Below are positions 25,931 through 55,939 of a DNA stretch of 64,000 nt, one piece after another. Made by a program: the position numbers and the translations under genes. This stretch comes from Escherichia coli (GTDB lineage Bacteria > Pseudomonadota > Gammaproteobacteria > Enterobacterales > Enterobacteriaceae): NCBI RefSeq assembly GCF_051903065.1, contig NZ_CP178438.1; one strand, 5' to 3'. How positions within the stretch are numbered: the first letter of the stretch is position 1; every line of letters starts with the position of its first letter. Below the pieces are notes generated by a model that worked only from the letters and a program-made list of their open reading frames with translations, had not been told where the DNA came from and did no database searches.

Positions 25931-27154
25931 ATGTCAATTGACTTTACCCCAGGTATGATAAATACATATCACGGCGATATTTATAACCGCACAACAGATA
26001 CCGACAATGTTAAAACACCAGACACACCGATGTGGCCTTGTGATAATCGGGAAGAACAACAACCCATTAATTCCACATTCTCTGGAGAAGGATACAACCC
26101 TGAACAATATGATTTAGCGCGGCAACACCTCCCACAAATTTATGCGTGCCGCACGAACACCAAATATACAGATGCAGACTACTCAAAAGTTGTGGCTCAA
26201 CTTGTAAGTCTTATTACTAACATTGAATCGATAAGTTCGACACCACTTACGCGGCAGGCACAGGAAATACTTAATCAAATTAATAACATTAGATACGAAA
26301 AGAACAAAAGTGCTGAATGTCGAATCATTGTTGTCGCTAATCCTAAACCCGACAAGGCAATCATAACTAAAATTAGCGTAGAAGAGGGAATACCAGTAAG
26401 ATTCAGTGTCCAAACCATGTTTTCAGATACTAATTTTATTGCTGAACAACGAGCTGACTTACCGACTAATATAAAAGATATTCAAAGCCTGTATCAAAAA
26501 ATGACGAAGTTATATATTGAGCACAGTGAAAATAAAAACAGGATGAAAGTCTTTGCCGGAACCAACTTTATTGATTTCAATATGACAGGACAGAACCTGT
26601 CCGGGTTCGTTCTAACCTTGTCAAGGTTTTATTTCGAAGATCTACTTAATATAAATTTCACTGACGCAAATTTAGGTGACACTATTTTTTCACATAAAGA
26701 ACACCCTACCCCAAAATTATATAAAGACGAACAATATCTTGACAAACAAATCGAAGGTTTATTTTCAACATTATTAACCATTAATGACAACTTTTTACGA
26801 GCAAAAGCGGAAATTGCTTCGACAATAATTAAATTTTTAGAGGCCAGGATAACCAATCTTTCATACAACGACATATTAAAATATCAGCAAGAATTCCAAA
26901 AACAATGTTATAAGCAAGTTAAAGCCTTTACGACACTCTCCCGATACAATAAAATTCAAACATGGGCAGAAATGTCTGAATATCAATTCGAAGTATTTCA
27001 ATACGAGACGCTTAACCCAAAAAAAATGTCACGCACGCCTTATTTAAAGAGGCCACTTCCTGATGAAAAAGATATAAATTATGGGGTGGAAATAGAAATA
27101 CCGTCTGGTAAAAGAATTCGCTTATCAAATCATTATCAGAATATAATACCATAA
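25931..27154 (+). CDS. yhiS: Uncharacterised protein YhiS, intact; AT-rich with a pentapeptide-repeat-like middle segment
   Basis: 407-aa uninterrupted ORF; segment [46 protein letters not shown]. Confidence 0.65.
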
Positions 27155-52021: not shown

Positions 52022-53701
<1,680 letters not shown>

Positions 53702-53703
53702 TA

Positions 53704-53744
53704 TTTTTACAGCCAGCCGCTAACTTCCTGCTGGCTGTAAAATT
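53704..53744. terminator. Bidirectional terminator between treF and yhjB
   Basis: tacagccagc / gctggctgta 10-bp perfect stem flanked by ttttt and aaaatt. Confidence 0.6.
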
Positions 53745-53751
53745 ATCCTCT

Positions 53752-54354
53752 TCAGGAGGAGATATTTAACATCATTGCCGCCTGGGTGCGATTTTTCACT
53801 TCCAGACGGCGATACAGGGATTCCAGATGCGCTTTTACCGTTCCGGTACTGATATTCAGCGCTCTGCCGATCTCCTTATTTGATTCGCCCGCCGCTAACA
53901 TGGTTAAAATCTCCCGCTGGCGGGCGCTTAACGATTTGAGATCTTTAATGTCCTTTTCCGGCGTCGTCCGCCAGTCTCCAGGCAGAAACATCATCCCCAT
54001 CGCCGCACTATTTACCGCCAACGCAAATGTCTCGACGGTTGAATCACGAGGCACAATGGCCAGCACATTAAAATGAATAACTTCCTGTAACCACCGTTTA
54101 TTGCAATCCGTCGCCGTGATTAACACCTTAACCTCAGGAAACTGCACCACGGTTTTTTGCAGTAACCAGTAGCAAAACTCACCATCCTGATCGCCATCGA
54201 GCATAACTAAGGCTTCAGGGTAACTTTCCAGCTTTTGCCATAACTCGTCTGCCTGACTGGCCCCCTGAATACTCACTCCTGGAATACGCTGCTGTAAACT
54301 GATTTTCATTCCATGAATAAATATTGACTGCCTGTCAAACATGACTATTTGCAT
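53752..54354 (-). CDS. yhjB: LuxR-type response-regulator-like protein YhjB
   Basis: 200-aa ORF with receiver-like N-terminus and C-terminal LuxR HTH. Confidence 0.8.
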   Translation of the reverse strand: MQIVMFDRQSIFIHGMKISLQQRIPGVSIQGASQADELWQKLESYPEALVMLDGDQDGEFCYWLLQKTVVQFPEVKVLITATDCNKRWLQEVIHFNVLAIVPRDSTVETFALAVNSAAMGMMFLPGDWRTTPEKDIKDLKSLSARQREILTMLAAGESNKEIGRALNISTGTVKAHLESLYRRLEVKNRTQAAMMLNISS

Positions 54355-54518
54355 AACTGAATCTCCACCTGAATACGTTAAAAAGACTTAAGTAGTGGAA
54401 GGGTATTACCCGCGAGAAAAAATAAGAATTCGCCATTTGGCGGTGGCCATTCTACAGAGATGACGCGTAGAAAATAGTTACCGATATAAATAGTTACAGC
54501 TAAACGCCTGAAATTACA

Positions 54519-54527
54519 TGTCGAGGG
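54519..54527. repeat. Left 9-bp target-site duplication TGTCGAGGG
   Basis: Identical 9-mer immediately outside both terminal inverted repeats. Confidence 0.85.
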
Positions 54528-55584
54528 GGCTTTGTTGAATAAATCAGATTTCGGGTAAGTCTCCCCCGTAGCGGGTTGTGTTTTCAGGCAATACGCACGC
54601 TTTCAGGCATACCTGCTTTCGTCATTTTGTTCAGCGCTCGTACCAGGGCCATAGCCTCTGCAACCTGACCATCGTAGTCACGCAGTGTCAGTGAACCCCC
54701 GAACAGCTGTTTTACCCGGTACATCGCCGTTTCCGCTATCGAGCGACGGTTGTAATCTGTTGTCCATTTCCACCGCGCATTACTCCCGGTCATTCGCTGA
54801 TTAGCCACTGCACGGTTACGGTCTGCATATTCACCGGGCCAGTAACCCGCACCTTTTCGGGGAGGGATAAGCGCGCTGATTTTCTTACGCCGCAGTTCAT
54901 CGTGACATAGCCGGGTATCGTAAGCGCCATCGGCGGCGGCTGACCTGATTTTCCGGTGGGTTTGCCGGATTAACCCGGGGAAGGCCTCTGAGTCCGTAAC
55001 GTTGTTCAGCGACAGGTCAGCGCAGATGATTTCATGTGTTTTACTGTCAACGGCGAGATGCAGCTTACGCCAGATACGGCGGCGTTCCTGGCCATGCTTT
55101 TTGACTTTCCACTCGCCTTCACCGAAGACCTTCAGCCCGGTGGAATCAATTACCAGGTGTGCGATTTCACCCCGGGTGGGCGTTTTGAAACTGACATTAA
55201 CCGACTTTGCCCGCCTGCTGACACAGCTGTAATCCGGGCAGCGTAGCGGAACGTTCATCAGAGAAAAAATGGAATCAATAAAGCCCTGCGCAGCGCGCAG
55301 GGTCAGCCTGAATACGCGTTTAATGACCAGCACAGTCGTGATGGCAAGGTCAGAATAGCGCTGAGGTCTGCCTCGTGAAGAAGGTGTTGCTGACTCATAC
55401 CAGGCCTGAATAGCTTCATCATCCAGCCAGAAAGTTATGGAGCCACGGTTGATGAGGGCTTTATTGTAGGTGGGCCAGTTGGTGATTTTGAACTTTTGCT
55501 TTGCCACGGAACGGTCTGCGTTGTCGGGAAGATACGTGATCTGATCCTTCAACTCAGCAAAAGTTCGATTTATTCAACAAAGCC
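54528..55584 (-). mobile_element. IS903-type insertion sequence (IS5 family), 1057 bp with perfect 18-bp terminal inverted repeats
   Basis: GGCTTTGTTGAATAAATC at 54528-54545 and its reverse complement at 55567-55584; internal transposase ORF. Confidence 0.9.
54584..55552 (-). CDS. IS903-family transposase
   Basis: 322-aa ORF matching the IS903/IS102 transposase as I remember it (…AKQKFKITNW.TYNKALINRGS.TFWLDDEAIQAWYE...). Confidence 0.85.
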   Translation of the reverse strand: MKDQITYLPDNADRSVAKQKFKITNWPTYNKALINRGSITFWLDDEAIQAWYESATPSSRGRPQRYSDLAITTVLVIKRVFRLTLRAAQGFIDSIFSLMNVPLRCPDYSCVSRRAKSVNVSFKTPTRGEIAHLVIDSTGLKVFGEGEWKVKKHGQERRRIWRKLHLAVDSKTHEIICADLSLNNVTDSEAFPGLIRQTHRKIRSAAADGAYDTRLCHDELRRKKISALIPPRKGAGYWPGEYADRNRAVANQRMTGSNARWKWTTDYNRRSIAETAMYRVKQLFGGSLTLRDYDGQVAEAMALVRALNKMTKAGMPESVRIA

Positions 55585-55593
55585 TGTCGAGGG
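55585..55593. repeat. Right 9-bp target-site duplication TGTCGAGGG
   Basis: Identical to the left copy. Confidence 0.85.
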
Positions 55594-55939
55594 CACTATT
55601 TAAAACAATTTTGAGGATTTCCTTATATTGGTGGTTAGTACGCATGCAATTAAAAATGAAATTCCGCGACCACAAGCCAAAATAACAAATGGCAATGAGA
55701 CAAAAATAAGCACAAATAGCCAATACGTCCTCTATTCACTTTAAAGGGAATCGCTGAAAAATACGCTCTGTTTAAGGGGATTTACCTTTCTCAGAAAGCT
55801 ATTCCGCCCTTTTCCTGCTGAGAAATCGCCACATTCGTCATGACAACATTGTGAAACCCGGCATTAGATGTTAGAAAAAACAATAAACAATGCGATATGC
55901 GCGTTACTGTTTCGCTGTGAACAACAATCGGTCAAAGAA

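Follow-up and report, generated by a model that had tools for sequence, protein, structure and literature searches.

The spacer between the divergently transcribed regulator genes yhjB and yhjC is interrupted by a mobile element in the Escherichia coli chromosome studied here, of which one 64-kb stretch (the window) was analyzed. This raises the questions of what the element is, how it came to occupy this site, and whether it alters the expression of either regulator. Both flanking genes are intact.

53752..54354, minus strand: yhjB, LuxR/GerE-type orphan regulator, 200 aa, intact (gene reading and annotation)
55940..56839, plus strand: yhjC (= rcdB), LysR-type regulator, 299 aa, intact (gene reading and annotation)

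YhjB is classed as an orphan LuxR-type regulator (PMC3405474), and the LysR-type YhjC/RcdB has reported global effects and has been tied to csgD, to Shigella virF, and to Salmonella infection (PMC8218686, PMC9867438, PMC9068703). In the annotation of strain 23CRST027, the window runs from hicAB-yhhJ to gadE-mdtEF-gadWX-gadA-ccp-treF-yhjB on one side of the spacer and continues with yhjC-yhjD-yhjE-yhjG-pdeH-kdgK on the other, with the chu heme cluster between dctR and yhiD. The PGAP annotation of that strain also marks frameshifts in a hypothetical gene that lies between arsC and slp (window about 25931 to 27047) and in chuY (window about 35231 to 35853). It lists no further transposase, in agreement with the initial annotation, in which the element was the only insertion sequence in the 64 kb. 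A window-wide search for long inverted pairs within 3 kb returned nothing beyond the element and a REP-like pair around yhjE. That pair, with a GCCGGATAAGGCGTT core, flanks yhjE at 57923 to 57945 and 59707 to 59729 and is an ordinary REP rather than an IS.

The anatomy of the element was read directly from the sequence.

54528..55584, minus strand: IS903B (IS5 family, IS903 group), complete copy, 1,057 of 1,057 bp identical to annotated IS903B copies
54519..54527, strand not applicable: left copy of the 9-bp target site duplication (TSD) TGTCGAGGG, by direct reading; single in empty sites
55585..55593, strand not applicable: right copy of the 9-bp TSD TGTCGAGGG, by direct reading
54528..54545, plus strand: transposase-distal terminal inverted repeat (IR), facing yhjB, GGCTTTGTTGAATAAATC
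55567..55584, minus strand: transposase-proximal terminal IR, facing yhjC, whose reverse complement is the same 18 bases

The initial annotation had described a 1,057-bp IS903-type element with perfect 18-bp IRs, flanked by identical 9-mers taken as the mark of a real transposition event, and each part of that description is borne out. The length of 1,057 bp (54528 to 55584) is that expected for the IS903 group, and the IRs match at 18 of 18 positions, with the match lost from base 19. TGTCGAGGG stands at both junctions and only once in empty alleles; a 9/9 match at both junctions has a chance of about 4e−6. A repeat finder recovered the inverted as well as the direct pair. When the IR 18-mer was searched across the 64 kb at up to 3 mismatches, it was found at two sites, which are the element ends, against 0.06 expected by chance. 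The type can be given more exactly as the IS903B isoform, to copies of which the element is 100% identical. Its left end lies 173 nt from the yhjB ATG (54354) and its right end 355 nt from the annotated yhjC/rcdB ATG (55940), TSD copy included, close to the earlier estimates of about 175 and about 355 bp. The direction of the transposase toward yhjB also stands, as the gene is on the minus strand and co-oriented with yhjB.

54584..55507, minus strand: transposase gene, GTG start, 307 aa (PF13737, PF01609, NF033579)

A single long minus-strand open reading frame (ORF), 54584 to 55552, occupies the element. PGAP uses a longer gene model of 322 aa starting at a TTG at 55552, versus 307 aa from the GTG at 55507. 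The 307-aa protein matches the Pfam families PF13737 (DDE_Tnp_1_5, 2.9e−40) and PF01609 (DDE_Tnp_1, 5.9e−33) and scores 357.6 bits against the NCBIfam IS5-family equivalog NF033579, for which the cutoff is 140. The protein has D at residues 121 and 193 and E at residue 259, the catalytic positions of the IS903 transposase, and around E259 it shows the Y-2-R-3-E-6-K spacing. Neither the ORF nor either end is damaged, and all are the same as in a copy that has multiplied widely; the element is apparently still functional. A GC-rich, terminator-like hairpin (8-bp stem with 7 GC pairs) with a T-rich tail, by consensus match only, is seen on the minus strand at 55284 to 55302, within the transposase gene and in sense orientation to it, about 200 nt past the start codon.

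The element is 100% identical over its 1,057 bp to many chromosomal and plasmid copies in RefSeq. The name is taken from the PGAP label “IS5-like element IS903B family transposase” on identical copies, which serves as a proxy for the reference isoform. IS903B matches are common, occurring at 7,192 places in 1,993 of the 5,426 complete E. coli genomes searched. With those copies the element shares its IRs, transposase, 9-bp TSD, and sequence without any difference; the insertion site alone is particular to the lineage of the window. The classical isoforms IS903 (from Tn903) and IS102 (from pSC101) are 1,057 bp long, with 18-bp IRs, a 9-bp TSD, and a 307-aa transposase carrying D121, D193, and E259, and the window element has the same architecture. 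In Tn903, two copies of IS903 bracket cargo genes in a composite, whereas the window element is a solo IS. On the strength of its identity, its intact ORF, and its intact ends, it is an unremarkable intact copy of an element that is already known and thoroughly described, and the annotations of two public genomes already include this insertion.

The comparison with the empty site that the initial annotation had proposed was made with an 800-bp reconstruction of the uninterrupted locus as the query against the 5,426 complete E. coli genomes, and it supports insertion into a site that is otherwise empty. The reconstruction is contiguous, with one TGTCGAGGG, in 5,401 of the genomes, K-12 included, and the single-copy site is also present in strain M15. 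In K-12 MG1655 the empty site reads aaattacaTGTCGAGGGcactatttaaaac, with the single TGTCGAGGG at 3672059 to 3672067 and identical flanks, and the yhjB-yhjC spacer is 519 bp, equal to the window spacer minus the IS; the occupied allele is longer by 1,066 bp. In M15 the two flank alignments overlap by exactly 9 bp at the yhjB-yhjC site. Transposition by a DDE transposase would account for this arrangement, with the target cut in a 9-bp stagger and the gaps filled in to leave the TGTCGAGGG duplication.

A 2.1-kb query spanning the element was then matched against the same 5,426 genomes, and 23CRST027 and its sister 23CRST031 were the only ones in which the occupied site was matched without a break. 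Both strains are from human feces in Ecuador, and each chromosome carries IS903B at 20 places. The window is collinear with 23CRST027 (NZ_AP045789.1) and 99.996% identical to it, with two mismatches and one gap over 64 kb. The gap falls at window 54858, where 23CRST027 lacks a C, so that PGAP flags its transposase as frameshifted; the 23CRST031 copy likewise lacks this C, judged by its equal alignment length. The same-site copies in 23CRST027 and 23CRST031 thus differ from the intact window copy by a 1-bp deletion that frameshifts the transposase, and this is either a true inactivating mutation or a sequencing error in the assemblies.

Among relatives whose site is empty, ECNB21-M121 is the nearest: it matches the 800-bp empty-site sequence at 100%, is approximately identical to the window over 24.9 kb of the left flank, and carries 12 to 13 IS903B places of its own. 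Because its flanks are nearly identical and its site is nevertheless empty, the insertion is recent and lineage specific, confined to one IS903B-rich E. coli lineage. IS903B has expanded to about 20 chromosomal places in that lineage, with the insertion in the spacer as one such event. A separate observation concerns the right flank. For yhjD-yhjE (57700 to 58499), the best matches do not include ECNB21-M121, and identity to the next-best genome is only 99.3%. A match that extends up to and across the IS site and is not found at yhjD-yhjE suggests a recombination boundary just right of yhjC, at about 55993 to 57700 in the window.

The multiplicity of IS903B in this lineage (20 places) could also be turned against the insertion, since assemblers can misplace repeats, and a solitary IS could in principle be one arm of a larger composite transposon. 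However, the junctions are exact, the 9-bp TSD is perfect, and two complete genomes that were deposited independently share these junctions, which argues against an assembly artifact. A Tn903-type composite arm was ruled out, as the window holds no second copy of the IR or the IS and the flanks are native yhjB and yhjC DNA, collinear with the empty allele. The probability left to an artifact or a composite is negligible, and we regard this reading as effectively refuted.

The choice of site was also considered. IS903 has a target preference, WTTYA-N9-TRAAW, that is a tendency (PMC2577343). The flanks TTACA and CACTA match it at 4 of 5 and 2 of 5 positions, and a score of at least 6/10 is reached at 10.5% of window positions. 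A match of 6/10 is within background, and target preference was therefore rejected as the reason for the site. The target is the AT-rich, 519-bp spacer between divergent yhjB and yhjC/rcdB, and a hot spot or selection at this spacer was also considered. The 800-bp empty-site query is noncontiguous or absent in 25 of the 5,426 genomes, and controls of equal length in yhjD-yhjE and hdeA-hdeD are noncontiguous or absent in 20 and 19 genomes, respectively. This is not an enrichment, so the counts point to neither a hot spot nor selection, and both were rejected.

Other IS5-family elements lie in or beside treF-yhjB-yhjC, but at other sites and with other outcomes. Strain AH04 (NZ_CP081706.1) has an independent IS903B, 100% identical and in the same orientation, that abuts window 54369 and so lies 15 bp upstream of the position of the yhjB ATG; next to it is a 559-bp deletion corresponding to window 53810 to 54368, which takes the 5′ part of yhjB. 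This event (AH04 locus 4001 to 5208) is common to AH02 and CT01. In S1-CAM-01-A (NZ_CP145714.1, locus 4346 to 6076), ISKpn26 of the IS5 family stands between a truncated yhjB of 474 nt and rcdB, and most of the yhjB-yhjC spacer is missing. M15 (NZ_CP185789.1, locus 3001 to 4059) has an IS903B inside treF with the 9-bp TSD TTCCCGTTG, and its yhjB-yhjC site is empty. The insertion in the window leaves both yhjB and yhjC intact, in contrast to the yhjB losses in AH04 and S1-CAM-01-A. IS-associated losses of the yhjB 5′ part in two other lineages leave some room for selection. The stronger proposal, that the window insertion changes YhjB expression and, together with the truncations in AH04 and S1-CAM-01-A, reflects repeated selection acting on yhjB in E. 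coli associated with the gut or a host, is in our estimation improbable.

The remaining question is whether the insertion affects transcription on either side. The initial annotation had put forward decoupling or activation of either promoter as no more than a possibility. An effect on yhjC/rcdB deserves consideration because the element sits in the spacer common to yhjB and yhjC and because global effects have been reported for the regulator YhjC (PMC8218686, PMC9867438, PMC9068703), so that altered expression could reach csgD and curli or virulence-type regulons. The sites that have been mapped in the spacer are on the yhjC side.

55840..55857, minus strand: PhoB box GTTTCACAATGTTGTCAT upstream of yhjC, published motif located by sequence match
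55858..55874, strand not applicable: YhjC ChIP-exo site, inferred position, mapped from K-12 coordinates

The PhoB box upstream of yhjC comes from published work (PMC3465305, PMC10294691) and, at a distance of 256 bp from the IS end, stays on the yhjC side of the insertion. Two further sites come from the ChIP-exo supplement of PMC8464067: a YhjC site at K-12 3670355 to 3670371, upstream of its own gene, and an RNA polymerase (RNAP)-co-bound YqhC site at 3670307 to 3670345, adjoining yhjC. These positions were mapped on the assumption that they are NC_000913.2 coordinates, as the gene assignments require, with an offset of +1977 to NC_000913.3; on that footing the YhjC and RNAP-bound YqhC sites would fall at about 55810 to 55874. 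A placement of the YhjC site at the palindrome at 55734 to 55751 was rejected, since anchoring on NC_000913.3 gives about 55858 to 55874. We infer that the promoter-proximal region of yhjC falls in the roughly 130 bp preceding the ATG and is left whole by the IS, which is 215 bp or more away. In all, yhjC keeps 355 nt of native upstream DNA, in which the PhoB box and the inferred sites of YhjC and RNAP binding are contained; the transposase points away from yhjC, and the right junction has no outward promoter-like site in our scan. With the mapped sites this close to the ATG and this far from the IS, yhjC would retain its promoter-proximal control region and its expression is probably unaffected, as far as sequence can tell, and a change in yhjC/rcdB and its regulons is highly unlikely. 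An in-frame upstream ATG at 55868 would lengthen YhjC/RcdB to 323 aa, although annotations use 55940 (299 aa), and the possible N-terminal extension (55868 to 55939) overlaps the inferred YhjC binding site.

The case for an effect on yhjB is stronger. The gene keeps 173 bp of native upstream DNA and is cut off from everything beyond, and it could be rewired upward, by read-through or a weak promoter at the junction, or downward, by loss of upstream promoter or activator sites. Transposase and yhjB are co-oriented, and the scan found no terminator-like site between the transposase stop (54584) and the yhjB ATG (54354). The mapped transcription factor sites in the spacer (PhoB, YhjC, and YqhC/RNAP) all end up beyond the IS from yhjB, and other lineages in which an IS adjoins a yhjB that has lost its 5′ part point the same way. 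Other evidence weighs against measurable rewiring. Outward promoter-like sites were not found at either IS junction by a simple consensus scan, which could miss weak or activator-dependent promoters; no sigma-70-like outward promoter exceeded the threshold there, and the totals equaled shuffle expectation. The best hybrid read by hand, TTCAAC-17-TAATTT, matches at just 6 of 12 positions and was rejected. The titles and abstracts of the literature searched contain no report of an outward promoter in IS903. Even in the empty allele, at least 300 bp separate the mapped transcription factor sites from the yhjB ATG, a long way for direct control, and PhoB binding in the spacer left the RNA levels of both yhjB and yhjC unchanged in K-12 (PMC10294691). 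The frequency of spacer disruption, equal to that of the controls, also speaks against it. On balance, we consider measurable rewiring of yhjB doubtful, though clearly the most credible of the regulatory effects considered. Should the promoter of yhjB be located farther than 173 bp ahead of its ATG, the IS would disconnect it, and the effect would not be modest.

Two further observations were made in this region. A tandem direct repeat, AAATAGTTACCGATA / AAATAGTTACAGCTA (AAATAGTTAC-type), with 16-bp spacing occupies window 54472 to 54502, on the yhjB side of the IS target and 17 bp away from it, within the native DNA that yhjB retains; its second copy is visible in K-12, and the repeat is a candidate transcription factor site upstream of yhjB. 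Disruption of a known RNA was also considered and rejected, as no Rfam family matched in 53500 to 56500.

Taken together, the locus is very probably explained by an intact IS903B that arrived by ordinary, recent transposition in one lineage; it is most likely a passenger of nearly neutral effect, and any influence on yhjB would be modest. The sole plausible change would be a modest one at yhjB, through weak read-through or loss of distal upstream input, and it is plausible there because yhjB is co-oriented behind the transposase gene with no terminator-like site between them and is cut off from distal DNA. The insertion has little importance beyond strain typing, for which it provides a clean lineage marker of the 23CRST027/23CRST031 clone. 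It adds one data point on the ongoing expansion of IS903B, at about 20 places per chromosome, and it offers a natural allele for asking whether the poorly characterized regulators YhjB and YhjC/RcdB have common upstream control.
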